Position numbers and translations under genes: made by a program. Positions 3,321 through 62,802 of a DNA stretch of 64,000 nucleotides are shown piece after piece. The notes under the pieces were generated by a model. The model was not told where the DNA came from, made no database searches, and saw nothing but the letters and a program-made list of their open reading frames with translations. Source of the DNA: an uncultured Verrucomicrobiae bacterium (GTDB lineage: Bacteria; Verrucomicrobiota; Verrucomicrobiia; Chthoniobacterales; JAFAMB01); assembly GCA_963762565.1 (NCBI GenBank), contig CAVXLD010000001.1:256001-320000 (forward strand), given 5' to 3'. Numbering within the stretch: the stretch's first letter is position 1; each line of letters starts with the position of its first letter.

Positions 3321-3602
3321 GGTAGGGCGAGGCTCCCGAACATCCCGACATCTTCGCAACGCCGGGGATGATCTTCTACCAGTGTATTAACGTGGCCGAT
3401 CAGCGCGCCGAGCCGTTGGTCCCAGCGAGTTCCATGACCCACAAGAACGGATCGAAGGTTTTTAAAAGTTCTCGCACGTCGAAGCGGTTAAATCAGCGCT
3501 GGGTAAATCGGCTCGGCGGGCAGACCGGGGCTGGACGCGTTTAATCCAAAAAATCACGGGCCCTGCGAAAGTGCATTCGTAATTCGGGAGCCTCGCCCTA
3601 CC
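3321..3602. repeat. Family B REP/REPIN-like long imperfect palindrome
   Basis: GGTAGGGCGAGGCTCCCG..CGCCGAGCCG..CGGCTCGGCG..CGGGAGCCTCGCCCTACC. Confidence 0.9.
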
Positions 3603-3655
3603 CCCCTCGCAGAGTCCTAGCTAACCAGGACGATTCTGCTACCATAGCCGCATCA

Positions 3656-5377
3656 ATGGTAGTGGAGACATATCTCGAGGCTCGTGCTCGGCTCGCTGGT
3701 GTCGTAGGGAACTTGGTTTCTCTCGCCAGAGAGACCGATGAAAGCCAGGAGACGATCGAAACGCTCCAGACTCTCTCGCGCAGTCTGGCGGATCCGCTTC
3801 TTTTTGTTGTGGTAGGCGAAGTGAAGGCAGGCAAATCGTCTTTGCTGAACGCGGTTTTTGGACAGGAATTTTGCAAAGTCGACGTGCTGCCTGCCACCGA
3901 TAAGATCTACGTCTTCAAGTACGGAGAGAAAGACCATGATGTGCCGGTATCGGATCATCTGACCGAGCGTTACCGCCCAATCCCGTTTTTGAAGAATTTC
4001 AACATCGTCGACACGCCGGGCACGAATACCATCGTGGCCAGCCACCATGAAATCACGACCAGCTATGTTCCACTGGCGGACTTGATCGTGTTCGTTTTCT
4101 CCGTGGTGAATCCGTGGGCTGCCTCAGCTTGGGAATTTCTTCGGCTGCTTGGGAATCGATGGAAGAAAAACATCGTGTTTGTATTACAACAGGCGGATCT
4201 ACGTTCGCCGGAAGAAGTCCAGGTCATTATCAAACACCTTGACCAGACCGTTCTTCAGATATTGGGCTCGAGCCGGCCGATTTTCGCGGTTGCTGCAAAG
4301 AAGGCCCTTAAGGCTAAGCTCATCTCGAATCCGCCCGAAGAGCCACTTTGGCAGGAAAGCAACTTTGCTGTCCTGGAGAATTGGATTTCTGAGACGGTAA
4401 CTCAAAGCGAGGAACGAGGCGGCAAGCTGCGGTCGACAGCTCAAACCGCCCAGGTTGTCGCCAATTCGATCCAGGTCCGTCTGCAAAGCTCTTTGGACCT
4501 CCTGAAATCAGATCAGGAAAAGTTGGGGACGATTCGTCGATCACTGGAGGCGCGAAAAGGGCAAACCCTTCGCCAAGTGGGCGGTTTTATCCGGGAAATG
4601 GAAATGGCTTACGATAACTGCCGTGAGCGGGGTGAGAAGCTGCTCGAGGAACGCCTCAGCCTGACCCAAACGTTCAAAATGATTTTTTCCGGCGGCCGTT
4701 GGGAAAAGGACTTTCAGGACCAAGTGGAACGCGATGTCAGGACCAAGGTACAAGAACAGATCGAACACGCGCTCGGGCTGCTCGAGTCGGATCTGCGCGG
4801 TATTTGGCAGGACTTACAGGAACGAGTTCAAGTTCAATTCGATAGCGACAGCAAACGACAGGTACGTCCAGCGTTGCCCGGGTTCCTAAGCCAGCGGGGA
4901 ATCATATTGCAAAAACTCCAACTAACCCTCCTCGAGCAAACCTCGGACGCGAAGATCAAAGAGCAGCTGCAGAGCTGGTTTGGCGAGACCGCTCGTTGGC
5001 TCCGGGTTCCAGCCGGGGTCGCTGCTGCTGGCGGAGTCTTTACCGTCATTGCTGCCCTGGCGCACGCCGCGATTCTAGACGTAACCGGGACGGTCGCCGG
5101 CGTCGCAGCAGCAGCCGGAACATTGTATGCCGTCCTGAGGCGTCGCCATATTTTGAGGGAATACCGCTTACGGATGAATGAGAAACGAACCCAACTTTCG
5201 GAGGCCGTTGAGACACAACTGCGTAACGCCATCACGGCCTTCTACCATGAGATCGGTACTACGTTCGATCCGTTAGAGAGTTTCTGTATCGCCGAAGCGC
5301 ACCGCATTTTGCCGTTACGAGAACGGGTGGATGAGATTGAGCGCTCATTGGTGGAGCTCAAGCAAATGACCGGGTGA
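3656..5377 (+). CDS. Dynamin-like GTPase
   Basis: GEVKAGKS P-loop, DTPG, long helical stalk, hydrophobic paddle near aa 440-495. Confidence 0.85.
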   Translation: MVVETYLEARARLAGVVGNLVSLARETDESQETIETLQTLSRSLADPLLFVVVGEVKAGKSSLLNAVFGQEFCKVDVLPATDKIYVFKYGEKDHDVPVSDHLTERYRPIPFLKNFNIVDTPGTNTIVASHHEITTSYVPLADLIVFVFSVVNPWAASAWEFLRLLGNRWKKNIVFVLQQADLRSPEEVQVIIKHLDQTVLQILGSSRPIFAVAAKKALKAKLISNPPEEPLWQESNFAVLENWISETVTQSEERGGKLRSTAQTAQVVANSIQVRLQSSLDLLKSDQEKLGTIRRSLEARKGQTLRQVGGFIREMEMAYDNCRERGEKLLEERLSLTQTFKMIFSGGRWEKDFQDQVERDVRTKVQEQIEHALGLLESDLRGIWQDLQERVQVQFDSDSKRQVRPALPGFLSQRGIILQKLQLTLLEQTSDAKIKEQLQSWFGETARWLRVPAGVAAAGGVFTVIAALAHAAILDVTGTVAGVAAAAGTLYAVLRRRHILREYRLRMNEKRTQLSEAVETQLRNAITAFYHEIGTTFDPLESFCIAEAHRILPLRERVDEIERSLVELKQMTG

Positions 5378-5407
5378 TGTAGACATGGACCCGGAAGGGG
5401 GAGACAC

Positions 5408-5622
5408 CCGGAGGGGAGCCGCTTTGTCAGACGCTAGCTGTGTTCGGTCGGCAGCAGGCGGCTCCCGGGAATAGCCCAGCGCGTTCTATTTATCCAGCGC
5501 CTACTTCGTTGAAGCACCGACACGGACAGAGCCTATAGAGCTGGATTACCTGGCAGACGTTACCGGGAGCCGCCTGCAAGCAACCGATAGACCTGCCAAC
5601 TTACAAAGCGGCTCCCCTCCGG
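5408..5622. repeat. Family A double-hairpin element
   Basis: Terminal IR GGAGGGGAGCCGCTTT/AAAGCGGCTCCCCTCC with inner GCGGCTCCCGG/CCGGGAGCCGC IR. Confidence 0.9.
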
Positions 5623-15537: not shown

Positions 15538-15692
15538 GGGAGGTATCGCGTCCTCGCGATCCGTCGTTCCCGAAGCCGAGGACCTGTTGCCAATCGTGGA
15601 CGAAAATGGACCTCCAAATGGTGGCACGTCCTCGCGGCGCGCGGGGATCCTCCGTCGCTAAAGCTATGGCGGACAGGCAGCGCGCCCTCCCC
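15538..15692. repeat. Family G REP doublet; right REP interrupted by a ~32-nt hairpin insert
   Basis: GGGAGGTATCGCGTCCTCGCGATCCG ... CGGCGCGCGGGGA[TCCTCCGTCGCTAAAGCTATGGCGGACAGGCA]GCGCGCCCTCCC. Confidence 0.65.
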
Positions 15693-15720
15693 GGACCGGC
15701 CTCGTAATCGTTTGGTTTTT

Positions 15721-15738
15721 CGGGAGTCTCGCCCTACC
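15721..15738. repeat. Family B right end overlapping the smc stop codon
   Basis: CGGGAGTCTCGCCCTACC. Confidence 0.75.
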
Positions 15739-19571: not shown

Positions 19572-19593
19572 TCAGGTCGGTCGACCGCATATT

Positions 19594-19840
19594 GGTAGGG
19601 CGAGGCTCCCGAAAGGCCTAAAGCTATGGTACCAGAGGTTTTTAGATGATGCGACGCTCCGGCAAGCGAATTGGGTCGGAAAACGCGCCGAGCCGTGGTC
19701 TATGAGGTGGCAGTGGATGAAACGTGGCAGATCAGGGGAGAGCGGCTCGGCACGTTTCCTGGCCTAACATTGCTCCGGGCATCGAATGATTCCTCTCCCT
19801 CCGATGACGTCCGCCGGTCTTTCGGGAGCCTCGCCCTACC
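19594..19840. repeat. Family B element
   Basis: Perfect 18-nt terminal IR plus inner CGCCGAGCCG/CGGCTCGGC blocks. Confidence 0.9.
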
Positions 19841-19842
19841 AA

Positions 19843-26768: not shown

Positions 26769-27009
26769 GGTGAGGCGAGGCTCCCGGAGACACGACTTGG
26801 TCCAGGGATGAACTCCGCCAGCCGCGAGGATAGCTGAGCACCGCCGAAAACTGCCAAGCTAGCTTGCCGACGGCGTGCCCCCCAACTCTGATATGCAAAA
26901 GAAAGTCCGCTCCAGCCCGATCGTTTGGTGAGCACGCCAGACCGGCTCAAACCCTGATACACATGCTCGCCGGCATTGCGGCGCAACGCGCCTTAGGGTC
27001 TCGTCCCAT
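26769..27009. repeat. Degenerate family B element
   Basis: GGTGAGGCGAGGCTCCCG left end; right end decayed. Confidence 0.5.
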
Positions 27010-42315: not shown

Positions 42316-42607
42316 GGTGGGGCGAGGCTCCCGAACAGTCGAATGTCGTTTCGCAGGGTTATTGATCCTTAAGGTTTGGCCTGACCGCGCCGGTTGTAGC
42401 CGAGACGGGCGCCGAGCCAGTCCCAGGGCTCGACAAGACCGATGAGGTCGATTCTTTCCCAACCCGGGTTTCGGTGCGCTTTCGCCTGTTAACGGCACTA
42501 CAAACCTTGACCCGGCTCGGCGAGCGTGTTGGCCTAGCCCAGCCGGCGTCGCAAACACTCTCAATACTCCGCGAACTCCTTTAGGCCGTTCGGAGCTTCG
42601 CCCCACC
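42316..42607. repeat. Family B element nested in an inverted octamer pair
   Basis: GGTGGGGCGAGGCTCCCG ... CGGAGCTTCGCCCCACC. Confidence 0.85.
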
Positions 42608-45169: not shown

Positions 45170-45667
45170 GGTGGGGCGAGGCTCCCGAATAGCCCGACGA
45201 ATGACCAAGGCGCAACGCACGAACGCCCAGATGAATGAGCAAGGCCAAAAGACGCGCCGAGCCGTGGCCAACGATAGAGCACGGCTCGGCGCGATTTAGG
45301 GCCTAACACCTGGTGCTGTTTTGCGTTACCAATCGCTTCGGTCAATCGCTGGGGTTTTCGGGAGGGTCCGTGGTCAAGACATAGGTAACAAATCATGGTC
45401 AAGACATGGGTAACAGGTACATACAAAAAATGACTGGGGTGACTCGGAGATCCGCCCAGCTGGCCGACGGAGGTCAGCTGATAAAAATCGCATGCCGATC
45501 GTTCGCGAGAATGGTCGCTTCTGCCCTCTCACACATTTCACCCTCAAAAAGGACAACCAGAGGGAACCATACATTTTTTGATTGCCCAAGAATAGGTATA
45601 TAAAAAGCACATTTTCTCGACAAAGTGATACCTATGTCTTGACCACGTTCAGGAGCCTCGCCCCACC
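45170..45667. repeat. Family B element whose right end is split by a MITE
   Basis: CGGGAG[287 bp]GGAGCCTCGCCCCACC. Confidence 0.85.
45365..45651. mobile_element. Non-autonomous IS481-like MITE
   Basis: 22-nt IR with 1 mismatch (cgtggtcaagacataggtaaca / tgatacctatgtcttgaccacg), left motif tandemly repeated, GGAG target duplication. Confidence 0.7.
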
Positions 45668-45689
45668 AAAGTCGAGCACGAAAGACAGC

Positions 45690-47491: not shown

Positions 47492-47513
47492 TTCGTTCCA
47501 CGCCCAACGTGCC

Positions 47514-50699: not shown

Positions 50700-51341
50700 T
50701 CAAATCCGAAACGACAACATAAGCAGCCCCGCTAAAATGAGACTGCAAGACCAAACCAGGTCAACGTTGAACCACGACTTACGGAGGATCGTGAGACCGG
50801 CGATATCATAAACCAGCCAGGCTACTATTCCGGCAACGACGAACTGCGAGACTGAGTGTAGACAGACACCCGGGATCGAATTGTAGAATCCTGCTAACGA
50901 GGTGGCGGACTGAGGCGAGGACGAGAGCGCGCACCAGGCGCCGCCGCCGGAAAGAAACACCGGTAGCAACATGAGGCCGGCGCCGTGCGCGCTGGCCATC
51001 AGGCAGGACCACCAGGTCAAGTCGCGAAAGTTTACCCGCATCCCGACCCAACGCGGATGGCGGCCCCGGATCAGTCGCCAACTCCCCAGGCCGGCCAAGG
51101 CTAAAGCCGCAGCCAAAGCAAACCAGGTGGTGGAGATGTAATGTCCCACCAGGAAGGCTAGTCCGATGATTGCGAATACGGAGACCGTGTGTCCAAGCGC
51201 AATCGCGCACATCGCTTGGAAAATGGCTGTCCTGGAGCGGTTCTGAAGCCCAAGACTGACCGCGAACAGCCAGCCCATGCCGGGATTCAAACCGTGCCAA
51301 GCCCCTAACCCGGCCAATGCGATCCAAGGCCAAGTATTCAC
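50700..51341 (-). CDS. Membrane protein with His motifs, downstream of the SBP56 gene
   Basis: GAWHGLNPGMGWLFAV, MASAHGAGLML; multi-TM. Confidence 0.8.
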   Translation of the reverse strand: MNTWPWIALAGLGAWHGLNPGMGWLFAVSLGLQNRSRTAIFQAMCAIALGHTVSVFAIIGLAFLVGHYISTTWFALAAALALAGLGSWRLIRGRHPRWVGMRVNFRDLTWWSCLMASAHGAGLMLLPVFLSGGGAWCALSSSPQSATSLAGFYNSIPGVCLHSVSQFVVAGIVAWLVYDIAGLTILRKSWFNVDLVWSCSLILAGLLMLSFRI

Positions 51342-51378
51342 GAGCTGTTACCTCCGTTGAGCGTCAAAAGCCAATTAA

Positions 51379-51522
51379 GATCCGCAGATTTCACAGATTA
51401 CGCAGATTTCGGTTTTAGGCTTGGGCAACTCTTCAGATAAAAACCTATTTCTGGCTCGGTGGATTTTCGGAGCCCCACGGCAGCATCTGAACCCCAAATC
51501 GAAATCTGCGTAATCTGCGGAT
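51379..51522. repeat. Inverted (cgcagat..)n/(atctgcg..)n pair; also 57626-57719
   Basis: Directly visible. Confidence 0.75.
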
Positions 51523-51543
51523 TTTTCATCTTTTGAATCTGGG

Positions 51544-52968
51544 TTAAGAGGGAAAACAGTACGAATCCGAAGAGGTATCGCCGCCTTCTAACCGAACCTG
51601 GTGGAGACGATGGTCGCTAGTCTGGACGAAAAACCGAGGATCAAAGCGCAACGAGCCGTCTTCGCCGGCCTCCGCTTTGACCATCCAGGTCCGGACCCCA
51701 TCCGGATAAAACTGTTCATCCCATGATTGGTAAAGCGAGTTGGTCAGATAGACGCGTTTTCCGTCGCGGCTCAATTCCACCATTTGGGGACCCCCATTAA
51801 GGGCCTCAGCCGGGCGCGAAGGATGCGGCGCTCGCTTGACGATCCCTCCAATTGGCAACACCGCGGTCAGCTTTGGCTGGTCCGGGGTCGAGACGTCATA
51901 CCGATGGAGTTCACCCGTGCCCCAGCAGGAAACGTAAAGCCAGCGATCGTCCAGCGACAGATTCAAGTCTGTCACCAGGGGAGGTACGGCGCCGAACCCT
52001 TGGAGCAAGGGCGGCAGAGCGGCGGCATCGGCGGGTTGAGCCGGGATCTCAATCACCTTTTTGATTTCCCAATCGCCTGCCCGCTGGCGCCAGAGCCAGA
52101 TTGATGCCGACAAATCCTTCAATGAAACCACCACTCCGACATACCCAAATGTCTTGGTCGGATCATGAGAGGGGCGCAGTTCCAAGACCATCTGATGTTC
52201 GCTCCCCAAATCGAGAACCTTTGAATGCTTGCGTTTCCGAAGATCCCAGAAATGGAGCTGGTGTCCGTATTTTGCGCCCAACAGAGTCTCAGGCTGTAGG
52301 CCTCCCTCGATCATCTGCGGTGTCCCCCATTCGCTGCTCATGAGGACGTCCTGGCCGAGATGCCAGGAAAAATCATACGCCAGCTCCTGAGGTCCTCGAT
52401 CCACTTCCCACCGGCCGAGGACGTTAAAGTCGTAATGATCGAGGATAAAAATTCCTCCCGGTCCAGCGCCGTCCGGGGCGCCCAGCGCACTTAAATAAAT
52501 GCCGTCCGGCCCACAATGTACCGTATGCGGCCGCGAATAACCCGCCCGTTTGAACACTTCTTCCGGTTCAATTGTTTTAACGATCCGCAGATTGGTTGGA
52601 TCCGGTTTCGTATCGATTACATGAATCCGAGAAGAACGAAGCCCCGGAACGATCAGGTATCGCCGTTCCACATGAGGATGCGGCGCGTAAGGACAAAGCG
52701 TTGCACTACAGGCATTCCATCCGAAGTGATGGAGCTCGTCCCCGATATCGGGGAAATCGACCCGGCTCAGGATCTGGCCATACCTAGAAGAAGACGGATC
52801 AACATCGATGACATAGAGCGCATCCGCTCGCGACCTCTGGTCGGGTGCTAAACCGGCCACGTAAGCATAGCGTTCAGCCGGCGCTTCCATCGCGAGCCGT
52901 GCTGTTGGATAAAACGTAGGATCAACAGTCCAGCGGAGCGGACTGGTAGAAAGACCGAGGTTTGCCAT
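51544..52968 (-). CDS. SBP56 selenium-binding/methanethiol oxidase-family protein
   Basis: DELHHFGWNACS, RPHTVHC, GGPQM, GGDTSSD. Confidence 0.93.
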   Translation of the reverse strand: MANLGLSTSPLRWTVDPTFYPTARLAMEAPAERYAYVAGLAPDQRSRADALYVIDVDPSSSRYGQILSRVDFPDIGDELHHFGWNACSATLCPYAPHPHVERRYLIVPGLRSSRIHVIDTKPDPTNLRIVKTIEPEEVFKRAGYSRPHTVHCGPDGIYLSALGAPDGAGPGGIFILDHYDFNVLGRWEVDRGPQELAYDFSWHLGQDVLMSSEWGTPQMIEGGLQPETLLGAKYGHQLHFWDLRKRKHSKVLDLGSEHQMVLELRPSHDPTKTFGYVGVVVSLKDLSASIWLWRQRAGDWEIKKVIEIPAQPADAAALPPLLQGFGAVPPLVTDLNLSLDDRWLYVSCWGTGELHRYDVSTPDQPKLTAVLPIGGIVKRAPHPSRPAEALNGGPQMVELSRDGKRVYLTNSLYQSWDEQFYPDGVRTWMVKAEAGEDGSLRFDPRFFVQTSDHRLHQVRLEGGDTSSDSYCFPS

Positions 52969-53267
52969 AAACAGTTTGTCCTATGGTGAACATGAAACTG
53001 GGGGTTAAAAAACGGGAGCTAGTCAGTCCCCCCGGCGAAGGAAAAAACCACCGTTACCCGACTGTATCACCAGGGTATCGATTGGCTACGCGTTTTGCAA
53101 TCGCGAATTTAGACCCCGAATGCCCGAAAATCTATAAGGGGCACGCAGTGGCGTAGAACGGCCCTTTCTGCAGACCACGCCAGCGGCGCTGCGAACGGAT
53201 AGGACCTATGCGACCTATAGGACTTATAGGTGATATCTGTCCTATAGGTCCTATTTGTTCGCAGGGT

Positions 53268-54254
53268 TCAGCGCGCAGCGTGCCCATCTGCGGTTCCTTT
53301 CCTGGATTGCGACGGAGGCTGCCCAAAGGCGCCGGTCCAGAGACGACGGAAATGCCGAACATCCGCAAAACCGCAGCGTTCCGCGACCACCTCAAGCGTG
53401 AGGCGATGATCGCGCATCAGGGAAGCCGCCATTTCCAGGCGAACCCTTTGTTGATACTGTAACGGCGTCAGGCCGGTATTCGCTCTAAAAGCGCGTGTGA
53501 GAGTCGATTCACTCATAGCGGCAAGAGAAGCCAAGCGAGCCAGAGGGGCGGGCTCAGCCGGATGTTCATTTAACCAATCCTGTACTCGGTGCACACCAAC
53601 ATGCAGGTGAGCCCGGTAATCGAGGAACACATTCAACTGATGATGCGCTCCGGTACGACGAAAATAAACAACCAGGTCGCGGGCAACCCGCGCTGTCATT
53701 TGCGGACCATAATCTTGTTCGACAAAGGAAAGCGCCAGATCGATCCCGGACGCTATGCCAGCGCTCGTCGTCACACCTCTGTCATGAACGAACAGAACGT
53801 TATCCACAACATCCGCCTTGGGATATCGCCGTTGCAGTTCCTTTACACAAGACCAATGGGTGGTGCAGCGACGCCCATCTAGAAGTCCGGCTTCTCCCAA
53901 ACCGAACGCGCCGGAGCAGACTGAGCCGACGGTAGCCCCGGAACGATGCGCGACTCGCAAATAATCGCGTAAAAATTCCTCTAGCACCTCCCGCCGGGTA
54001 CGGCCATGCCAGCGAACCCCCGAAACAATCACCAGATCATTTCCGTCCAACCCACTAGCCGGAATCATCGGACCGAAACCGGTCAATGCGAGCCCCACCG
54101 CGCTCGGGACCTGTGGCGTTGAACCTGTGAAATGAAGCCGATAGTTACACCCGCAGCCATTGGCCGAATCAAACGCCTGAACCGGACCGGCCAAATCGAG
54201 CAAATGAACCCCCGGCGCAACAATGAAAATGACGCGTCGTTCAGGATGCTTCAC
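53268..54254 (-). CDS. GlxA-family AraC regulator with DJ-1 domain
   Basis: SVCSGAF, TTHW, TSAGIASGID, C-terminal AraC HTH; GTG start after AGGAGA. Confidence 0.9.
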   Translation of the reverse strand: MKHPERRVIFIVAPGVHLLDLAGPVQAFDSANGCGCNYRLHFTGSTPQVPSAVGLALTGFGPMIPASGLDGNDLVIVSGVRWHGRTRREVLEEFLRDYLRVAHRSGATVGSVCSGAFGLGEAGLLDGRRCTTHWSCVKELQRRYPKADVVDNVLFVHDRGVTTSAGIASGIDLALSFVEQDYGPQMTARVARDLVVYFRRTGAHHQLNVFLDYRAHLHVGVHRVQDWLNEHPAEPAPLARLASLAAMSESTLTRAFRANTGLTPLQYQQRVRLEMAASLMRDHRLTLEVVAERCGFADVRHFRRLWTGAFGQPPSQSRKGTADGHAAR

Positions 54255-54296
54255 AACAACTCTCCTAACCACGGACTTCGTTCTCGAATCGAGCGC

Positions 54297-54534
54297 TTTT
54301 GTGGAGCGCTGCCTTGCTTGCGAGGCCGTAGGGGTCGCCACCCGTGGAGCGCTGCCTTGCTTGCAAGGCCGTGGTGAGCAGAGGTTGACGGTCCGGATAT
54401 GTCGCATGATTTGACGGCGCTTTCTCGTGCGTGCCGAGGCAAAAGTCGCGACATAGAGCGCAGACAGACATTGGGTATTCATCGTTATGCTCCGTTGTTA
54501 ACAACGGCCTCGCAAGCGAGGCGCGCTCCACAAA
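54297..54534. repeat. Cluster of three family C REPs (two minus, one plus)
   Basis: Copies at 54301-54329, 54342-54374, 54504-54531. Confidence 0.85.
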
Positions 54535-55134
54535 TCACGTCAACGATTCCAAAACCTCCTTTGTAGAAACGATATTCGCGAATCGACCGGCTAGCGCATA
54601 TTCGGTCCTTCGTACCACTTCGTCGGTCGACAACTCCGGCCCACCGGCCCAATGAGGGATAGCAAAGGTTAAAGTGGCATCCGTCACAAAATCGACTTGA
54701 TAACCCCGGTCGGAGGCGTCTCGAGTCGTGGTTTCGCAACACTGCTCCGTTTGGATACCCGTCACCCGGAGACGCTTGATTTCCCATTGGGTAAGTCGCC
54801 GGGCTAAATCAGTACTGGCAAAGGCGCTAATGGTTGTCTTCTGAAGCACAACTTCGCCCGGCCTGGGAACCACGAAATCCATGAACCGATAGAAAGGAGA
54901 TTTCGGATTGAAATGGCTCTCCGGTTTTAAATTCTGGTGTAACAAGAAAACGATGGGCAAGGCCGCAGTTCGATAAACTTCAATCAATTTGGTTACGTTC
55001 GATTCGAAGGCAGAATTGTTGCGTGTGGCCCAGGTAATAGAATCAGCCTTAAACGATTCTTGCACGTCAATCACCAATAGGACTGATCCAGGCAAACCGC
55101 TAGTTGTATTAGTTTTATAGTTTGAGCTACTCAT
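54535..55134 (-). CDS. Isochorismatase/cysteine hydrolase
   Basis: LLVIDVQ, KTTISAF, GIQTEQCCETT. Confidence 0.92.
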   Translation of the reverse strand: MSSSNYKTNTTSGLPGSVLLVIDVQESFKADSITWATRNNSAFESNVTKLIEVYRTAALPIVFLLHQNLKPESHFNPKSPFYRFMDFVVPRPGEVVLQKTTISAFASTDLARRLTQWEIKRLRVTGIQTEQCCETTTRDASDRGYQVDFVTDATLTFAIPHWAGGPELSTDEVVRRTEYALAGRFANIVSTKEVLESLT

Positions 55135-55206
55135 TCCTGCAATCTATGCGACACAACCCTTCACGACGAGGGTCGATCCAGTCAAAAATAGGACGGATCT
55201 GGGCAC

Positions 55207-55418
55207 CTGGAGGGGAGCCGCTTTATAGGACGGCAGTTCTACTGGATGCTAGCAAGCGGCTCCCGCGAACGACCCAGCGTTACCCATCCTACCTGTCGGC
55301 CTGAACTAACACCTGCCCATTAGAAGAGCCCTGGGGAATATGGCGCGTGGAACCGTTCCCGGGAGCCGCTTGCTACCAAATTACAGAACTGCCATTCTAT
55401 AAAGCGGCTCCCCTCCAG
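55207..55418. repeat. Family A element with well-paired arms
   Basis: CTGGAGGGGAGCCGCTTTATAG ... CTATAAAGCGGCTCCCCTCCAG. Confidence 0.9.
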
Positions 55419-55446
55419 ACGCTTTCCGCCGTCGCTTACCACACCC

Positions 55447-56076
55447 CTACTGGCTCGACCCCGGACACTGGTCGCTCAAGTGGTTGAGGTTTTCGTGATC
55501 CTGGGCAAACACGATTTTATCGTTTCCAGCGGGAACGCGTAGGATATCAATCCGATCATATTCATCGCCCGGCCAGTCGGGCACTTGCTTGGGATCGCCG
55601 CCCTTCATCTGCACCAAGTCTTTGACCATCTGATTGAGATAATGATGTTCCCAAACAATCAAAATAACCTGACCGGCGCGTTCCGGGCTCAACAACTCGT
55701 TTTCCAGATCTTTGATCTGGTCATAGTGATGATCGCAACTTACCGGCATCCCTAACCGAATCGCAGTCGGCTCGATCGTGGCTAACGGACGCAGATAATC
55801 GAAAGTACCAGCAGGGTCGTGTACTTTCCCGGTCGGATCGGGCGCATAAATTTGGTCCGGTTTACCAAACTTCGATAAGAGTACCGCGGGAAGCGCCAGG
55901 GCCCGGTTCAATCCTTGACAGTTGATTTGCCCTAGGCCGGCCACCGGCTTTTCCGCGTGCCGGATGAAAACAATGGTTTCAACCTTAGCATCCAGAGCAT
56001 TGGCCGGCTGTTGGGCCTGCCCCTGCAGATGTGTCGCTAAAGCCAGGATCAGTGAGAGTGCGCACAGTGTTCGCAT
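55447..56076 (-). CDS. Secreted histidine-phosphatase-like protein
   Basis: Signal peptide; IRHAEKP, RPLATI, VWEH. Confidence 0.75.
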   Translation of the reverse strand: MRTLCALSLILALATHLQGQAQQPANALDAKVETIVFIRHAEKPVAGLGQINCQGLNRALALPAVLLSKFGKPDQIYAPDPTGKVHDPAGTFDYLRPLATIEPTAIRLGMPVSCDHHYDQIKDLENELLSPERAGQVILIVWEHHYLNQMVKDLVQMKGGDPKQVPDWPGDEYDRIDILRVPAGNDKIVFAQDHENLNHLSDQCPGSSQ

Positions 56077-56160
56077 AGCGAAAAGTAATCAGTAATCAGT
56101 GTATACAGTATCAGTATCCGAACTAGGCGACGCCCAGCGTCCACTGATTACTGATTTACT

Positions 56161-56228
56161 GCCTCGCTTGCGAGACCGTGGCGAGCAGAGGGTGACGGTC
56201 CGGATATGTCGCATGATTTGGCAGCGCT
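56161..56228. repeat. Family C hairpin plus a flank duplicated from 54354-54421
   Basis: 61/68 identical by manual alignment. Confidence 0.8.
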
Positions 56229-56249
56229 CCACCGGTTCCTACCGCCCCT

Positions 56250-56284
56250 AAACAGAACCGCCAGGTCCCTGTGGACCTGGCGGT
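56250..56284 (-). terminator. Possible intrinsic terminator
   Basis: Perfect 12-bp stem accgccaggtcc/ggacctggcggt, 4-nt loop, weak U tail (tctgttt) on the minus strand. Confidence 0.45.
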
Positions 56285-56389
56285 AACTACACCTTCGCTC
56301 TGTTGAAGTTCCTAGATTGAACTACGGGGAAGATCTCGAATCCGGGCGTAAACCTCGATCAGTTTATGACCAGAGGCCAAAATCCTATG

Positions 56390-56790
56390 TGAGAGGTGAG
56401 AAGTGAGACGCGAGCAGTGAGAGGCGCCTTGGGACGGCAGAGGTTGGGAGCTAAGGGATTTTGAGAACCAGAGAGGCTTATCGTCCGCGACTTCACTCCG
56501 GCCACTGGCGTCCAAGCACCCTTCACCATTCACTTCTCACATCTCACTTCTCACGTAGGAGCGAGCGGGCCAGCAGAAGGAGCTAGGAGCTAGAATCTAG
56601 GAGCTAGGAGAGTGCGCAGCGGCAGGTGCTCGTTCTCGTCGTCGTTCCTCCTCCTCGATTCTAGGCGTGTGGAGAATCCTGGAACGCAAACCTTACGTCA
56701 AAAACCGTGGGCTAAAACCGAGCTGCAGAATCAAAGTCGAGGACGATTACCGTCGAGCTGGTGCGCCTCTCCTAGCTCCTAGCTCCTCCG
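56390..56790. repeat. Stack of inverted micro-repeat pairs: (gtgagaa)/(ttctcac), then (aggagct)/(agctcct) enclosing (tcgtc)/(gacga)
   Basis: Directly visible. Confidence 0.7.
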
Positions 56791-56793
56791 CCC

Positions 56794-57555
56794 TCACCTG
56801 GTCCAATGGCCCCCGACCGAGCTTAGAACCGGTACAATCCCGTTCAGCGCTTCTTGGCGATTGGAATAGTCGACCTTTCCGACGGCTCCGATCATTGGGA
56901 CACCGGTCGCAGCGTGGAATTTTTGACTCATGCTTTCGCCGGTATAGCAACCCCAGCTCTTGACATATGCGCCAGGAGCAAACAGCCCGCGATGCAGCTC
57001 TGCCAGCTGATTCTGATGGAGCCATGACTTCGAGCTGCTCCCCACCTGGTTCGAATAGTCGAACATGAACGCGTCTTGATTCGAATGACCAAAATATTCG
57101 AAGTCGGCGATTTTTATCTGTTGCCTTGGTTTTCCCGCGTTCAGGTATTGAATCACGGCCTCGCCGTTTTCGATCGGGACCAAGTTCAGTCCGTAAGCAT
57201 CCCGAACGGAGTAAACCAACGGGATTAGATCGCGTTTCTCTTGAGCGGAACGAGACCGATACCCATCGAGATAGATCAATAGGGTCACGATCGCGGCAGG
57301 ATTATTTTTAACCACCGGTTGTAGTTCCTGGATCCGGGTTCGCGCGGCACGTACGAAACACCCCCAATAGTTGTCATGCGGCTCGTCCTTATATTGTTCC
57401 CAGAGGTGCAATGACGGGCCGCCGCAGAGGAAGATGTATTCGTACGGATGCCTGGCGTCAGCAACCGGAACGGCCGGGGGAGGCGCTTCAGTCTGGCCGC
57501 GAGCTGTCCCCGCCGCCAAAACAAGGAATAGGGCGAGACAACGAACGAGATTCAT
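56794..57555 (-). CDS. Secreted hypothetical protein
   Basis: Signal peptide MNLVRCLALF; FEYFGHSN and KSWGCYTG (possible His/Cys dyad). Confidence 0.75.
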   Translation of the reverse strand: MNLVRCLALFLVLAAGTARGQTEAPPPAVPVADARHPYEYIFLCGGPSLHLWEQYKDEPHDNYWGCFVRAARTRIQELQPVVKNNPAAIVTLLIYLDGYRSRSAQEKRDLIPLVYSVRDAYGLNLVPIENGEAVIQYLNAGKPRQQIKIADFEYFGHSNQDAFMFDYSNQVGSSSKSWLHQNQLAELHRGLFAPGAYVKSWGCYTGESMSQKFHAATGVPMIGAVGKVDYSNRQEALNGIVPVLSSVGGHWTR

Positions 57556-57766
57556 CTCAAACGCACAACTCAAGACCCTCAGATTAACCACGAATGGGCA
57601 CGAATTGATACGAATAAAAAAGAACAACCGCAGATGTACGCAGATTAAGCCCGGCAAAATCGTGGGCTGAGTTTCTCCCTAGGAAATCATCTGCGTAAAT
57701 CTGCGTTCATCTGCGGTTAAGTTCTTCGCCTTACATTCTTGTCGATTCGCGGTTCAAATTCCGGCT

Positions 57767-58339
57767 TCATTGGTAGGTCGGCTGGGAACCGCCCCTGGGC
57801 CACCCTTGGAACATCTGGCGATCGCGAATGAAAAAAGGAGACCAAATCGGATCCGGATTCGGCGCGATCAACTCAGCCCGCTTCAGCACGAATTCTGAGC
57901 AGAACCGGCCGGCGGAGGCATCATAAATTTGATCTCCTGAAAAATAGCCGTAAAGCCGGTATTCACTTCCGTTGTCGGACCCGATCTGACTGCGAACGCG
58001 ATCAGGTGCGAATTGAAATTTTTCGTTCAGGATAACGAGCTTGGCTGTCTTCCAGTTCTGCCGTGGCGAACGGACGTATCCCCAGATAGCGAAAGGCGGA
58101 GAATAAACTCGCCGTCCGATATAGAAATCCCCAACTGGTTCAGCGGCAATCTGTTGAGCGATAGCGGCAGACTGCAAGAATGGCGAAGCTTGGGGAGTAT
58201 TAGTCGCGCATCCGGCCAGGAGGAGGAAGAGCGAAACGGCGTATGGGCGTGTCGGCGTATCGGCGTATCGGCGTAGGAACGTGCGCAGGCCGTGGAGCGT
58301 GCCTCGCTTGCGAGGCCGTGGCAAGCAAGGAGGAATCAC
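57767..58339 (-). CDS. Hypothetical lipoprotein
   Basis: LLLAGC lipobox; globular IGRR..WGYVR..LNEK..YGYFSGD domain; start uncertain. Confidence 0.7.
   Translation of the reverse strand: MIPPCLPRPRKRGTLHGLRTFLRRYADTPTRPYAVSLFLLLAGCATNTPQASPFLQSAAIAQQIAAEPVGDFYIGRRVYSPPFAIWGYVRSPRQNWKTAKLVILNEKFQFAPDRVRSQIGSDNGSEYRLYGYFSGDQIYDASAGRFCSEFVLKRAELIAPNPDPIWSPFFIRDRQMFQGWPRGGSQPTYQ
58290..58321 (-). repeat. Family C REP
   Basis: Reverse complement of the 13673 copy. Confidence 0.88.
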
Positions 58340-58458
58340 TTAGAAGCTCCCTCCGTCATCTGCACTCTGTACCGATGAGAAAAGAAGCGAGTAGGTTCTA
58401 GCACGGGCGTCACCAAGCCGGAATACATGGCAAACACCGGAGAATTCCGCAATCGAAA

Positions 58459-58625
58459 TCCCCGCGCGCCGGGAACAGGTCTGAATTGTGGATATAGCCG
58501 AACGCTTGATTGGGTCCATGCTGGGCTTCGAAACAAACGGATCGCGAGGATCCGCCGGCGCCAAGTCGGGCTCGCACGGCTAGCTTATTCAAGAGGGCTA
58601 TGGCGGACAGGCAGCGATCCCTCCC
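58459..58625. repeat. Family G REP remnants with interrupted right REP
   Basis: CGGATCGCGAGGA[TCCGCC...GCTATGGCGGACAGGCA]GCGATCCCTCCC. Confidence 0.6.
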
Positions 58626-58737
58626 CTATCCCCATCAAAAATTGCCTGCTCATTTTTTATCGATACAGGCTTTTGAGTTGCAAACCCCCAAGGCGCAGCT
58701 ATCTATTCGATCCACCAAAACCGGGAGTATCCGCGCT

Positions 58738-59139
58738 ATGAACATAATCCAGAAGATTGAGAAAGAGCAGCTTAAGCCCGAAATCACCCCATTCCGGGTG
58801 GGCGACACCGTTAAGGTCCATACGAGGGTGGTTGAAGGAGACAAGGAGAGAATTCAGCTTTTCAGCGGGATCGTGATCGGCAAGCGCGGAAGCGGATTAA
58901 ATGCTTTCTTTACCGTGCGCCGAATTTCATACGGCGAAGGCGTTGAACGAATGTTCCCGCTCCATTCTCCACGAATCGCCAAAATCGAAGTTGAACGCCA
59001 AGGCAACGTCCGGCGCGCAAAACTCAATTATCTCCGCTCCCGGAAAGGCAAACAAGCCGTCACGGTAAAAGAGAGAGTGCAGACGTCTTCGGTGAAAGAG
59101 ACGGCGCAGGCCTCGAAAGAGACGGCGCAGGCTTCTTAA
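58738..59139 (+). CDS. rplS: 50S ribosomal protein L19
   Basis: [33 protein letters not shown]. Confidence 0.97.
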
Positions 59140-59145
59140 GGAGCC

Positions 59146-59381
59146 GGTAGGGCCAGGCTCCGGGACGGCCGAGAGAAGTCCAACAAAGCGACTCGGTTTC
59201 ATTACAGACGCTGCACGCAGCCCCGACTCGCTGCCGAGCCGATTCCAGCGTCTGGTACTGTCGAGCACGGGGTAAACCCTGGGTCCGGCTCGGCGGCTTT
59301 TTCGACTACTACTACCCTTGGTCTGGGCAAGCGAAGCCGCGTTGCGAAATTTTGACGGCCTTTCCGGAGCCTCGCCCCACC
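59146..59381. repeat. Family B element
   Basis: GGTAGGGCCAGGCTCC..TGCCGAGCCG..CGGCTCGGCG..CCGGAGCCTCGCCCCACC. Confidence 0.85.
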
Positions 59382-59400
59382 AACTTTTCGCCGTTTCGCC

Positions 59401-60174
59401 TCACTCAAATCCCCCTCGAGAACGCAGCACTTGACCCGTAATCCAGCCTCCTTCCGGCCCAGCTAGAAAGCCAATCAAACGAGCCGCATCTTCCGGTTGG
59501 CCGATGCGCCCGAGCGCAAAGCGACTCAAAAACTGCCGTTGAAGCTCTGGAGTGATCCAACCGGAATCCGTCGGGCCAGGATCGACCGCATTTACGGTGA
59601 TGCCCAGATGTCCGACTTCGGCTGCAAAGGTGATGGTGAACGCGTCGAGACCGGCCTTCGTCACCGCATAGGCGAGCGTTCCCCGCATCGGGCCGAACAT
59701 CTGGCCTGAAGTCATTGAAATAACCCGGCTCGCACCTTTCCCGCCGAATCGCCGGACAAATTCCATACTCAACAGAACCGGGGCCCTGGTATTCAGAACG
59801 TAATGACGATCCAGTGTCTCGGCGTCCAAGGTGTCAATTGAGTCACGGGCCCAGAAACAAGCGTTGTTCACCAGAATCTGAGCAACGCCGAATCTGGCTT
59901 GGACGGCGTCCCATAGCTTTCGAGGAGCCTCAGTGAGCGACAGATCGACTGGATTCCATTCGGCTTCGACACCTAGCTTTCGCAGTTCCTCAGCCAAAAG
60001 CAGCGGCTCATTCGGCCGAGTTTCCCCCGGTTGCTGGTCGTCATATTCCAGCCACCCGGTCATGAACAAATGAGCGCCGCGTTTTGCGAGCTCCCGGGCA
60101 ATCGCCGCCCCAATGCCTCTTTCCCGGCTGACTCCGGTAACCACTGCCACTTGTCCTGCTAGGGGAACATTCAT
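59401..60174 (-). CDS. SDR-family oxidoreductase
   Basis: TGVSRERGIG, LVNNA, YAVTK, VDPGPTD. Confidence 0.92.
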   Translation of the reverse strand: MNVPLAGQVAVVTGVSRERGIGAAIARELAKRGAHLFMTGWLEYDDQQPGETRPNEPLLLAEELRKLGVEAEWNPVDLSLTEAPRKLWDAVQARFGVAQILVNNACFWARDSIDTLDAETLDRHYVLNTRAPVLLSMEFVRRFGGKGASRVISMTSGQMFGPMRGTLAYAVTKAGLDAFTITFAAEVGHLGITVNAVDPGPTDSGWITPELQRQFLSRFALGRIGQPEDAARLIGFLAGPEGGWITGQVLRSRGGFE

Positions 60175-60425
60175 TGCCACGGTACTTACACGCTCGACGT
60201 TCGTGGTCAAAGAGGTGCGCACCAGAGCAATGGCTCGGTTCTCGCACCTGAGATGACGCTGGGAGGGTAGCCCGGATATGACTTATATGACTTATACAAC
60301 TTATAAGCATATACGTCCTATAGGTCATATAAGTCCTATTCGGGCGCCTGTCCTTCCGCACCTTTCTAACACTGACGCGGCACCTCCTTCGCCCTTTCGC
60401 CGATACGCCCATCCGCCCCACGCCC

Positions 60426-61214
60426 CTACGCCACCACAACCTGCACGCCGGCCTCTTTCAGCGCTGCCGCCAGCTCCTCCGACGGCTCAGCGTCGGTCAC
60501 CAGAATTTGCATCGCGCTCAGCCCGGCAATCTGGGCAAACGAGTGTTTGCCCAACTTGGATGAATCCGCCAGAACGATCGTGCGCTGGGCAGCGCCCATC
60601 ATGGCAGCGATCATGGACGCCTCTTCCAGGACGGTGGTGGTGAGCCCTTCCTGGGCGGTGATTCCGCCAACGCCGATTATAGCGGTATCAACGGAGATCT
60701 GGATTCCAGACGCCAACACCGGACCGATCGTTACCTGTGCCTCCGGCCGGAATTGGCCGCCCATGACGTATACGTCTCGGATCAGCTCGGTCGAGAGCAC
60801 ACCTGGTACGCTGAGATTGTTCGTCACCACCGTGAGATATTGCTGGTTTAGCTCCGCCGCGAACAACCGCGTGGTGGACCCACCATTGATTAAGAGGGTC
60901 TCGCCGTCGCTAATCAGAGCCGCCGCCGCCTTAGCGATCCGTTGCTTTTCCGGCGTGCGAGTATTCAGCCTCTGCAGGAACGGCGAATCCCGATGAACCA
61001 AGGTTGTGATGGTTACAGCGCCGCCGTGAGTTCGGGTTAATGCTCCTTTTTCCGCCAATGCGTCCAGGTCGCGCCGGACCGTGTCCTCCGAGACATTAAA
61101 GTATTCCGAAATATCGGCGACGGACATCTGGCCCTTTATTTCGAGAAGCTTCAACACCTCGTTTTGACGTTGCGCCGGTAATGCGGGTTTCCGCGGCAAA
61201 TCGACCTCATCCAT
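60426..61214 (-). CDS. DeoR/GlpR transcriptional regulator
   Basis: VSEDTVRRDL, RTHGGA, LADSSK. Confidence 0.94.
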   Translation of the reverse strand: MDEVDLPRKPALPAQRQNEVLKLLEIKGQMSVADISEYFNVSEDTVRRDLDALAEKGALTRTHGGAVTITTLVHRDSPFLQRLNTRTPEKQRIAKAAAALISDGETLLINGGSTTRLFAAELNQQYLTVVTNNLSVPGVLSTELIRDVYVMGGQFRPEAQVTIGPVLASGIQISVDTAIIGVGGITAQEGLTTTVLEEASMIAAMMGAAQRTIVLADSSKLGKHSFAQIAGLSAMQILVTDAEPSEELAAALKEAGVQVVVA

Positions 61215-61308
61215 TGGAGAATCCGGCACATTCTGCCACAAAACTGCGTTAATCCAAGGCAAATACGCATTGACTATGCATTTTTATGCGCCTATCTATC
61301 TTATAAAC

Positions 61309-62694
61309 ATGCATAAAAACGCGTTCCCCCATGACGAATCTGATCCCGGTCCGTCCTGCCGGTCAGATATAAACTCTGATAATTCAGAGGCGGCCGACCT
61401 TTCGCCTGCATTGCGCGATGGATTGAATCGGCGCGATTTTATCAGGCGGAGCGGACTGGCTTTAGCCGGCGCAGCCGCAGCCTCCACCTTTGTCGGCCCA
61501 CGCCGCGTGTATGCAGCCGGCCCGGTCGAACTCACCTTTGCCAGCGCTAAGTTTTTCGGGAAAGAGACGATCGCCGAGGTCGTGAAATCGTTTAACGACT
61601 CTCAAAGCAAAATCCACGTCACCTACAAAGAGCTGCCACCACCCAGTTCCTCTACCGAAGTGCATCAATCCCTGGTGCAACAACTGGCGAGGCGAAATGG
61701 CGACCCGGACGTATTCACGTTGGACATTATCTGGATCGCGGAGTTCGCGGCAGCGAAATGGGCCGCCCAGCTGGATCAGTATTTCAAGGATAGCACCAGC
61801 GAATATTTCCCGGGCATGGTTCAAGGCTGCACCTGGCAAAACAAGCTGGTGGCGTTGCCCTGGTTTGTCGACTCGGGCATGCTCTACTACCGAAAGGATC
61901 TTGTGACATCAGCGCCCGCGACTTGGGATGACCTGATTGCGAGCGCCAAAGAGGCGACTGGGTCTGGCAAAGCAAAGTTCGGTTTCCTTTGGCAAGCGAA
62001 ACAAGCGGAGGTGCTGGTCTGCGATTTGGTTTCGTTCATCGGATCAAACGGAGGCTCTATTCTGGAGCCGGACGGCAAAACCGTGTCGATTGCGGACGAA
62101 CCGGCCGTTCAGGCGGTGCAATTGATGTATGACCTGATCAACAAAGAAAAAATAACCCCGGCCGACGTCTTGAGCTGGGATGAAGAACCTTCACGCCGCC
62201 CGTTCACCGGGGGTGAAGCCGCTTTCTTACGGAACTGGTCCTATGTTTGGAAGATCGCTCAAAGCGAGGCCGAATCGAAGGTGGTCGGTCAAGTGGCGGT
62301 GGTGCCGCTCCCTCACTTTTCGGACAAGAAAAGCGCTGCCTGTTTGGGCGGTTACCAGTACGGGATCAACGCATCGAGCAAAAAACTAGAGGCCGCAGTT
62401 GAGTTTGCGCGGTGGATGTCTTCTCCGGAGACACAGCTTCGATTCGCGACCCAGCTTGGTCTTTGCCCCACCAGAGCCGCGGTCTTTGAGCAACCGGAGA
62501 TCGGGACGGAACAACCTTTTATGCAACAACTCAAGGACGTCTTCCTGGGCGCGATTCCGCGGCCGGTGACACCAAAATACCCGCAAGTCACCTTGGCCTT
62601 GCAGTCAGCGGTATCGACCGCGTTAACCAACGGCAAAGTCGAGGAGTCACTCAAGGCCGCCAAACAAAAGATCGAAGCGATCGTTAAGGCGTAG
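61309..62694 (+). CDS. Tat-exported sugar ABC transporter substrate-binding protein
   Basis: NRRDFI Tat motif; DIIWIAEFA, LYYRKDL, FLRNW; start uncertain. Confidence 0.9.
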   Translation: MHKNAFPHDESDPGPSCRSDINSDNSEAADLSPALRDGLNRRDFIRRSGLALAGAAAASTFVGPRRVYAAGPVELTFASAKFFGKETIAEVVKSFNDSQSKIHVTYKELPPPSSSTEVHQSLVQQLARRNGDPDVFTLDIIWIAEFAAAKWAAQLDQYFKDSTSEYFPGMVQGCTWQNKLVALPWFVDSGMLYYRKDLVTSAPATWDDLIASAKEATGSGKAKFGFLWQAKQAEVLVCDLVSFIGSNGGSILEPDGKTVSIADEPAVQAVQLMYDLINKEKITPADVLSWDEEPSRRPFTGGEAAFLRNWSYVWKIAQSEAESKVVGQVAVVPLPHFSDKKSAACLGGYQYGINASSKKLEAAVEFARWMSSPETQLRFATQLGLCPTRAAVFEQPEIGTEQPFMQQLKDVFLGAIPRPVTPKYPQVTLALQSAVSTALTNGKVEESLKAAKQKIEAIVKA

Positions 62695-62708
62695 GAACGA
62701 GAAAACTT

Positions 62709-62802
62709 GGTAGGGCGAGGCTCCGGAAAGACCTCATCACTTCTGAATGGCGATGGCTTTGAACCAGAATCCGATCTCCCGCCTCGATGCGCCGCTGAGC
62801 CG
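62709..62802. repeat. Left half of a family B element
   Basis: GGTAGGGCGAGGCTCCG, 67 nt, CGCTGAGCCG. Confidence 0.75.

Follow-up and report, generated by a model that had tools for sequence, protein, structure and literature searches.

REPINs (inverted doublets of repetitive extragenic palindromic, or REP, sequences) and their REP-associated tyrosine transposases (RAYTs), which are domesticated bacterial transposases, are the best-studied mobile DNA persisting vertically inside bacterial lineages, and the recognition of a REP by its RAYT has been worked out on compact hairpins alone. Palindrome-associated elements derived from IS200/IS605 rely on the chemistry of HUH Y1 enzymes acting on single-stranded hairpins and leave no target duplication, and the enterobacterial BIMEs (bacterial interspersed mosaic elements) are mosaics of REPs in alternating orientation that bind host proteins. 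We know of no IS200/IS605-derived element and no BIME with a fixed-length, sequence-free insert inside its recognition hairpin. Here we analyse a repeat family with eight copies in a 64-kb stretch (hereafter the window; G000:C1:256001-320000) of a 6.1-Mb Chthoniobacterales genome (G000; 15 contigs, 54% G+C), whose units consist of two conserved blocks, A and B, on either side of a variable arm of ~67 nt. We consider it highly probable that the family is a REPIN population with its own RAYT, in which the REP hairpin loop has been hugely expanded in this genus. An earlier note, made from the sequence of the window, had read the copies as REPs of a RAYT whose joined blocks give a compact hairpin and whose arms are constrained in length, and had favoured a diversification mechanism or a structured RNA scaffold over neutral decay; our results uphold the first three points and speak against the last two proposals.

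In one REPIN study, REPINs are elements of ~100 bp in which a 'highly variable' spacer separates conserved REPs with a palindrome of ~14 bp, and their detection is limited to pairs within 130 bp (10.1101/2021.07.10.451892). A survey of GTAG-tagged REPs describes loops of 2-3 bp in many families, loops of 9-15 bp in GTAG-15 and self-complementary inner loops of up to 27 bp in Bradyrhizobium, reports a GTGG tag in most GTAG-20 units of the Verrucomicrobium O. terrae, and states that units with unusual loops were discarded (PMC3733652).

The units of the present family read, in order, TT, a tag GGTRG (GGTAG or GGTGG), the 5' half-stem GGCGAGGC, TCCCG, an arm of ~67 nt, C and the 3' half-stem GCCGAGCC; the stem halves lie ~73 nt apart, which is atypical for a REP. 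When positions 6-13 of block A (GGTRGGGCGAGGCTCCCG) are set against positions 9-2 of block B (CGCCGAGCCG), six Watson-Crick positions are paired in 98-100% of 455 units; the tandem G.A/A.G at the stem centre is invariant. In the genera g6 and g10, which belong to the same bacterial family, the second half-stem follows right after block A. In g6 (genomes G010 and G018) it stands behind a loop of 4-5 nt in 31 of 33 units, and across the sister genera the loop of this stem measures 2-5 nt. Two compact forms occur in G010 and G018, namely GGCGAGCC TCCC GGCGAGCC and GGCGAAGC TCCC GCTGAGCC, and both are often paired inverted as compact REPINs of ~55 nt. Moreover, across the three stems positions 6:3' and 7:2' are altered on both sides with the pairing kept, i.e., as double compensatory changes. 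Together, A and B thus form one GTAG-tagged REP stem to which each contributes a half, and the existence of the compact form with its compensatory changes bears out the hairpin that had been proposed from joining the two blocks. Since sister genera carry the compact stem, the TCCC that ends block A would represent the original loop, and the arm would have been inserted there. Each of the five sister species sampled in the genus carries the family (34-320 matches to block A at no more than one mismatch), and compact variants of it occur in three genomes of two other genera; among 400 genomes sampled across the phylum, single matches were found in six, and the reversed control pattern likewise gave six single matches.

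The cognate RAYT came to light in a scan of unusually long inverted block-A pairs, in which a 756-bp pair (C10:17254-18009) encloses a single gene:

G000:C10:17378-17833, minus strand: RAYT gene, 152 aa, outside the window

The locus runs A (17254, plus), a 66-nt arm, B, the gene, B', a 65-nt arm and A' (18009, minus), the gene occupying the centre position of a giant-loop REPIN. Its product matches NCBIfam NF047646 (REP_Tyr_transpos, REP-associated tyrosine transposase) with 84.5 bits (cut-off 80, E = 6.4e-24). The sole PDB match, E. coli TnpArep (4er8_A, E = 6.2e-7), covers the HUH and Tyr motifs, with PDHLHL and Y-MFMNPVRAGLV aligned to that chain; residues H65, H67 and Y122 are invariant among 10 homologs, and the HUH motif and the catalytic Tyr are intact. 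The gene is the only copy of its lineage in G000, where the next homolog, of 48% identity, has REPs of a different family on its flanks. Orthologs of 80-87% identity are found in G002, G004 and G003, flanked by giant-loop REPs with alignable arms (in G004 and G003 one flank is visible, the other lying beyond the contig end). Additionally, a G010 homolog (50% identical) is flanked by the compact GGTAG GGCGAGGC TT GCCGAGCC, the same stem as in G000, and homologs in G009 are accompanied by other, fully paired 8-bp stems with TCCY loops. Judging from these sequences, the RAYT and its REPs have been vertically co-inherited in G000, G002, G004 and G003. The earlier note had suggested a search for a RAYT/IS200-like gene flanked by the blocks; this gene answers it and, placed as it is between two giant-loop REPs, supports the assignment of the family to the REP/RAYT kind. 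No gene with a Pfam Y1_Tnp match (12 in G000, 22 matches in five relatives) lies within 1.5 kb of a block A.

In the mechanism that we propose, the RAYT would cut and move the units as single-stranded DNA, like other HUH Y1 enzymes, and blocks A and B would persist because units losing them would no longer be moved or kept. The arm itself would have arisen once, by insertion into the REP loop of the ancestor of the genus.

An exact Hamming scan of G000 gave 561 block-A matches at up to 3 mismatches (232, 212, 72 and 45 with 0, 1, 2 and 3 mismatches, respectively), against 0, 0, 0 and 11 in the reversed-genome control. Block B stands at the expected place in 455 of the 561 units, with arm lengths of 57-80 nt; arms of 66, 67, 68, 69 and 70 nt are found in 64, 110, 111, 84 and 45 units, i.e., 414 of 455 (91%) fall between 66 and 70 nt. 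This is the narrow genome-wide distribution of spacer lengths that the few copies of the window had led one to expect. Two units placed tail to tail form a REPIN of 207-292 bp, of which there are three main length classes. There are 199 inverted (+/-) pairs of adjacent A blocks spanning 150-360 bp, with lengths clustering at ~207-213, 236-250 and 260-292 bp, and the centre between B and B' is variable, measuring 16-18 nt in 79 and 41-144 nt in 89 of 180 parsed elements. The reverse complement of the right arm shows the same faint pattern as the left arm (AAYGRCC.AAA...TTTCSCARRG...GCC), and a left arm is 58.6% identical to the reverse complement of its own right arm, compared with 56.3% between different elements. 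The former value agrees with the description of the two arms of one copy as about half complementary; since complementarity within an element is about the same as between elements, each element is made of two independent ~100-nt units joined tail to tail. REPIN interiors lie within open frames of at least 200 codons for 15% of their length, compared with 76% for the whole genome. The arm comparisons described below were made on block-anchored alignments (a MAFFT alignment of all 561 units inflated to 758 columns).

Within the window, block A has 12 matches at no more than 2 mismatches (0.01 expected) and block B has 8 exact matches (0.40 expected). Motif search and reading of the sequence yielded the following copies, in which A' and B' denote the inverted blocks:

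3321..3602, unstranded: full REPIN of 282 bp between two plus-strand open frames; A 3321-3338 and A' 3585-3602, B 3406-3415 and B' 3509-3518, left arm 3339-3405 (67 nt), right arm 3519-3584 (66 nt), centre 3416-3508 (93 nt)
15640..15738, minus strand: single REP unit; block A 15721-15738 with 1 mismatch, arm degraded, no clear B left
19594..19840, unstranded: full REPIN of 247 bp; A 19594-19611 and A' 19823-19840, B 19686-19695 and B' 19743-19752 (the latter with 1 mismatch), left arm 19612-19685 (74 nt), right arm 19753-19822 (70 nt), centre 19696-19742 (47 nt)
26769..26786, plus strand: lone block A with 1 mismatch (GGTGAGGCGAGGCTCCCG), no recognisable block B downstream
42316..42607, unstranded: full REPIN of 292 bp; A 42316-42333 and a degenerate A' 42590-42607, B 42410-42419 (1 mismatch) and B' 42513-42522, left arm 42334-42409 (76 nt), right arm 42523-42589 (67 nt), centre 42420-42512 (93 nt)
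45170..45667, unstranded: short-class REPIN, 498 bp with insert; A 45170-45187, B 45255-45264 and B' 45282-45291, left arm 45188-45254 (67 nt), right arm 45292-45358 (67 nt), centre a hairpin loop at 45265-45281 (17 nt), A' split into a first part 45359-45365 and a remainder ending at 45667
45366..45649 (limits approximate), unstranded: a different element of ~284 bp nested in A' of the 45170 REPIN and having terminal inverted repeats of its own, GTGGTCAAGACATAGGTA... / ...TACCTATGTCTTGACCAC
59146..59381, unstranded: full REPIN of 236 bp; A 59146-59163 (2 mismatches) and A' 59364-59381, B 59232-59241 (1 mismatch) and B' 59286-59295, left arm 59164-59231 (68 nt), right arm 59296-59363 (68 nt), centre 59242-59285 (44 nt)
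62707..62802, plus strand: single giant-loop REP unit; TT followed by A 62709-62726, arm 62727-62792 (66 nt), B-like CGCTGAGCCG 62793-62802

All eight copies are intergenic and none overlaps an open frame of at least 150 aa. The eight positions given previously, five full inverted doublets and three single units, are all correct, and the hand-counted spacers of 67/66, 74/70, 76/68, 67/67, 68/68 and 67 nt were re-measured as 67/66, 74/70, 76/67, 67/67, 68/68 and 66 nt, i.e., they agree within 1 nt. The left arms at 19594 and 42316 are the sole arms of 74 and 76 nt, respectively, in the genome. The 45170 copy reaches 498 bp because a different inverted-repeat element is inserted in its right terminal block; contigs of three metagenome runs carry a joint that skips 45392-45622 within this nested element, of which a shorter form may exist in other strains. 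The 42316 REPIN has inverted tandem words of the GGGCGAAN type on both flanks, and many REPINs lie inside inverted arrays of 7-9-nt tandem words (GTGATTG, GGGCGAAN, GGAGTTCAA, CTAGGAG, GTGAAAG), with the same type of word on both sides of the element (e.g., window 42280-42315 and 42608-42650). Mutually complementary flanks (at least 9 of 12 positions) accompany 8.5% of the elements, compared with 0.4% in permutations.

The perfect terminal inverted repeats of 20-22 bp (TTGGTRGGGCGAGGCTCCCGAA), the size of 200-300 bp and the high copy number could suggest an ordinary miniature inverted-repeat transposable element (MITE), whose ends would be recognised by a DDE transposase. However, the elements show no target-site duplication: identical direct flanks are at chance level for k = 2-9 across the 199 elements (at k = 4, 1 of 199 vs. 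0.94 in permutations). Moreover, many units stand singly, with no partner end (only 199 pairs of 150-360 bp for 561 ends), the ends carry a tag of the GTAG type of REPs, and the sole gene found between inverted ends is the RAYT. Hence, we regard an ordinary DDE-dependent MITE as the least credible of all the explanations considered here.

The arms are highly diverse, as had been seen in the window. Ungapped identity among the 68-nt arms (n = 111) averages 35%, and information content approaches zero in the middle of the arm, along the whole of which a weak common consensus nevertheless runs. The arms beside the orthologous RAYTs can be aligned, with 36-57 of 68 positions identical between species and one 1-nt gap, while block A is identical at 18-20 of 20 and block B at 10 of 10 positions. 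Between G000 and G002, arm identity is 53% and the identity of RAYT third codon positions 52%; the arms change at approximately the neutral rate and, therefore, no special mutagenesis is needed. Scores between an arm and its nearest neighbour in the genome form a continuum, with a median of 0.62 compared with 0.51 in a column-shuffled control; 257 of 445 arms lie above every control score and 45 of 445 reach 0.8 or more, which fits a very old birth-death population. Searched against the rest of the genome, as the earlier note had suggested, the arms matched nothing beyond degenerate family copies and one arm carrying another repeat. We conclude that arm variation is neutral drift in a very old, vertically kept repeat population with its blocks under selection. 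The earlier view that the arms reflect diversification 'rather than neutral decay' is thus not sustained: the arms diverge about as much as third codon positions, they retain a weak consensus and they lack genomic sources.

Active diversification, in which arms would be rewritten or swapped by targeted mutagenesis, by templated replacement or by a CRISPR-like ruler capture of foreign DNA, has to be weighed mainly at a single locus. We compared contigs of four soil metagenome runs over window 41000-60500, drawing on the parts with contig cover, which is incomplete in runs X5, X6 and X8. In a 2,480-nt contig of run X1, the flanks of the 42316 REPIN are near-identical to G000 across 2.2 kb, where just two differences were listed, whereas the REPIN itself carries 10 substitutions and 7 small deletions, a difference of ~6% set between flanks that are ~99.9% alike. 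The deletions shorten the 76-nt left arm to 69 nt, one consensus base of A' is restored, and two of the X1 variant letters recur in runs of other studies. This allele pair could stem from an exchange of alleles, from recombination over a short patch, from rewriting at the locus or from an error in the consensus of the assembled genome. The locus is the sole evidence that favours active change, although the scarcity of REPINs sharing both arms (one pair among 89) could also mean that halves are reshuffled. On the other hand, the 59146 REPIN is identical in the X1 contig, and the 42316 case, being one locus in which short-read contigs are compared with a metagenome-assembled genome, is explained equally well by a recombined allele or a consensus error. 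Given also the third-codon-like divergence of the RAYT-side arms across four species with its one 1-nt gap, the shared weak consensus, the continuous nearest-neighbour scores above control, and the lack of arm matches to other genomic DNA save those already named, active diversification seems to us quite improbable.

The conserved ends and the fixed-length variable middle of the units also resemble guide-carrying RNAs, and it could be supposed that the units are transcribed and that their blocks hold a variable region of fixed size. Folded as single-stranded DNA, whole REPINs pair A with A' and B with B' around a two-armed bubble and do so better than shuffles (z = -3.1 for 59146 and -5.1 for 3321), but the inverted blocks alone account for that. 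The arms taken alone fold like their shuffles (-15.6 vs. -15.1 kcal/mol, z = -0.16; 150 of 455 arms sampled), and mutual information revealed no helices inside the arms, its top pairs being register shifts and subfamilies (CCCG/CCGG); between block A position 17 and the final base of the arm there is a C-G/G-C covariation, which rests on about one event. Moreover, Rfam gave no match at gathering score in the 64-kb window, the halves stand in both orientations by construction, and no arm targets were found in the genome. Hence, the structured RNA scaffold that had been put forward earlier did not find support and appears very improbable. The substrate of the RAYT, as far as folding predictions can tell, is likely to be either the long REPIN hairpin or an A:B stem held by protein.

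In contrast to the arm sequence, arm length and the two blocks are conserved. Mismatch per site, which is conditional on the detection thresholds, is ~0.04 in A and ~0.055 in B in every nearest-neighbour (age) class, the blocks are ~95% intact in each of these classes, and decayed copies are few (~34 and ~51 units with 3 and 4 mismatches after subtraction of the control). As block decay is independent of arm age and decayed copies are few, selection or correction must preserve the blocks even as the arms saturate. The standard deviation of arm length is 1.3-1.5 nt in every divergence class. In the sister species G001-G005 there are 23, 254, 57, 100 and 140 exact block pairs with a gap of 55-85 nt, against 0 for the control pattern; among 150 units listed from these five genomes, all arms measure 61-71 nt, and 139 of them measure 66-70 nt (hand tally). 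The arm length of 66-70 nt is therefore kept in six species, genus-wide. The constraint is genuine, as the earlier note had maintained from a handful of copies, and we read it as stabilising selection on length.

The enzyme or a host partner might need the half-sites at a set distance; alternatively, a double stem of A:A' and B:B' with a balanced 67 x 67 bubble might be needed, and either would act as a ruler on arm length. We consider it possible, at rather less than even odds, that the ~67-nt arm is a molecular ruler, with the RAYT or a host partner reading half-sites ~85 nt apart or requiring the long hairpin with its 67 x 67-nt bubble, that units of other lengths are lost and, further, that arms may occasionally be rewritten or exchanged, as the 42316 locus hints. 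If true, a ruler or arm rewriting would mean that HUH transposases recognise their substrates, and that repeats evolve, in a way not previously described for REPINs.

Signs of RAYT-dependent mobility are indirect: the lack of target duplication, the few arms with a close relative, and the differences in occupancy of orthologous spacers between species. The spacers orthologous to 3321 and 19594 hold other families or nothing in the sister species. That orthologous to 19594 is filled with other repeat families in four of them: in G002, G003 and G005 (L046, L044 and L051, orthologous to window 19572-19842) with a common, different palindromic repeat, GGGAGCCGCTTTGGC ... GCCAAAGCGGCTCCC. Only the 15721 site is shared, with G004, where a REP unit with a normal B adjoins the same gene; the G000 unit is degraded. 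Repeat occupancy of a given spacer thus turns over between species of ~80-85% DNA identity, a pattern that would be compatible with units moved by the RAYT. A repeat of another family follows the single unit at 62707..62802, and the GGGAGCCGCTTTGGC ... GCCAAAGCGGCTCCC repeat was also seen after this single REP, at window 62820.

Several observations weigh against a REPIN population that is moved by this RAYT and measured by its arm. On the side of the enzyme, the RAYT protein retrieved no Pfam family at E <=1 and is not among the 12 Pfam Y1_Tnp matches of the six-frame genome search (E <=0.001). With this query, neither G001 (89% complete) nor G005 (81% complete), both of which bear the repeats, yielded an ortholog of at least 80% identity, and the alignment of 10 homologs displays no clade-specific insertion or extra domain as a possible ruler. 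On the side of the repeats, most arms are without a close relative in the genome, given that only 45 of 445 score at least 0.8, and among the 89 REPINs with a centre of at least 40 nt there is one pair in which both arms are related (score of at least 0.62), though many single arms have relatives. Hence, recent copying of whole REPINs would be rare, and copying or exchange may act on the halves separately from the REPIN as a whole. Furthermore, the A:B stem of an isolated single-stranded unit has a mean predicted pairing probability of 0.04 (120 of 455 units) and, therefore, the classical REP hairpin would not form unaided. The indel-to-substitution control, in which arms are compared with centres of related REPIN pairs, had one usable pair, and a low neutral indel rate is an alternative explanation of the constant length. 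Finally, the conservation of the blocks could equally reflect a function for the host.

The last point leads to the possibility of a host-recruited platform, on which a host protein (a nucleoid protein, gyrase or an IHF-like bender) would bind both sites ~85 bp apart on double-stranded DNA, the geometry of the complex fixing the spacing and the link to the RAYT being historical. E. coli REP/BIME elements bind gyrase and IHF, and in the present family the equal integrity of the blocks in every arm age class, the rarity of recent spread implied by the few copies with close relatives, the length held within +/-2 nt and the instability of the A:B hairpin on its own are all compatible with such a role. 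However, orthologous spacers in the sister species are mostly without the element or hold other families, which suits a mobile repeat better than fixed regulatory sites. The A/T content of the arms has its period peak at 9 nt (z = 17.8) and not at 10.5 nt (z = 5.6), although this periodicity mostly mirrors the residual consensus and we base no conclusion on it. The cognate RAYT, moreover, is an intact gene whose catalytic residues show conservation between species. Taking both sides together, we regard a host platform as unlikely, and the REPIN population with its own RAYT as the better account of the family.

The genome houses further genes of the same kind, none of which belongs to the family described above. 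The RAYT paralog mentioned earlier lies at:

C7:542253-542699: RAYT paralog (48% identical), with flanks at L090 1353-1425 and 2060-2132

Its REP family consists of GGTAGGGCGAAAATCTCGGCGCGCC, ~30 nt and then GCGCCGGATTTGAGCCG, the half-stems AAATC-T-CGGCGC / GCGCCGGATTT closing a loop of ~33 nt. With a loop of this size beside the paralog, loop expansion may be recurrent in the genus. The same REP family also fills the G004 spacer orthologous to 19594. Moreover, five short Y1/RAYT-like genes (L011-L015, of which L011-L013 are G000:C7:408772, C3:712536 and C3:55497) each lie within inverted repeats of 40-70 nt that belong to other REP families, e.g., GGTAGCCTGGCATGAAATGCCAGG preceded by GTCCCGNAGGGAC. 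Four proteins of ~350 aa (G000:C1:531701, C5:482843, C12:565110 and C3:501577) combine an N-terminal Y1-transposase-like domain with a long C-terminal extension, and one of these fusion genes lies between inverted repeats of 15 nt that end in TTAA (AGGGTCACGTCTTAA). As candidates for the cognate transposase, the short Y1 genes were set aside for their other REP families and the Y1 fusion genes for their unrelated ends. Several REP-RAYT systems are present side by side in one genome.

These findings bear on how REPINs are recognised and how they evolve. Within a single enzyme clade, the REPs served are compact in some genera and split by a 73-nt loop in another, and each genome offers several hundred natural 'mutants' of the filler; the system opens the questions of which parts of a REP are read by the enzyme, whether a single REP or a whole REPIN is the substrate, and what role distance plays. 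Unlike in ordinary REPINs, the neutral arms date each copy, and most copies predate sequence saturation, yet still have intact blocks, which bears on the debate over the selfish or domesticated nature of REPINs, or a combination of the two. A giant-loop family such as this one would be overlooked or wrongly described by standard REPIN finders (21-mer seeds, pairs within 130 bp) and by REP surveys in which odd loops are discarded. In our literature search, which used few wordings and lay outside subscription journals, no description of a fixed-length giant-loop REP was found.

Compared with described systems, the family resembles REPIN-RAYT systems (PMC3116915; 10.1101/2021.07.10.451892) in its inverted REP hairpin, its hundreds of extragenic copies, its single-copy RAYT flanked by REPs, its conserved REP parts beside a variable spacer and its long-lasting vertical inheritance. 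It differs in that the elements measure 207-292 bp and exceed the customary size (~100 bp, pairs within 130 bp), which is a convention of the search method and not a mechanistic matter, and in that the variable part lies inside each REP, between the stem halves, and has a fixed length, whereas the spacer between REPs varies in length from 16 to 144 nt. With the GTAG-tagged REP families (Di Nocera et al. 2013) it shares the GTAG/GTGG tag, a stem of 6-13 bp, compensatory variants, head-to-head and tail-to-tail dimers and heterodimers, the last being comparable to the compact g6 form that pairs two stem variants; unlike in those families, the loop here is ~73 nt long, not self-complementary and held to +/-2 nt. 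E. coli TnpArep with its REP (PDB 4er8; PMC3479197) is the only solved relative of the RAYT found; the HUH and Tyr-NPV motifs align, but overall sequence similarity is low, and the E. coli enzyme was solved with a compact REP hairpin. The family thus shows all the defining features of a REPIN-RAYT system that were tested, except for the size convention. The earlier note had asked whether the elements are an already described MITE or REPIN: the kind, REPIN-RAYT, is known, while this variant, with its ~73-nt loop of fixed length that is not self-complementary, is undescribed as far as our search reached.

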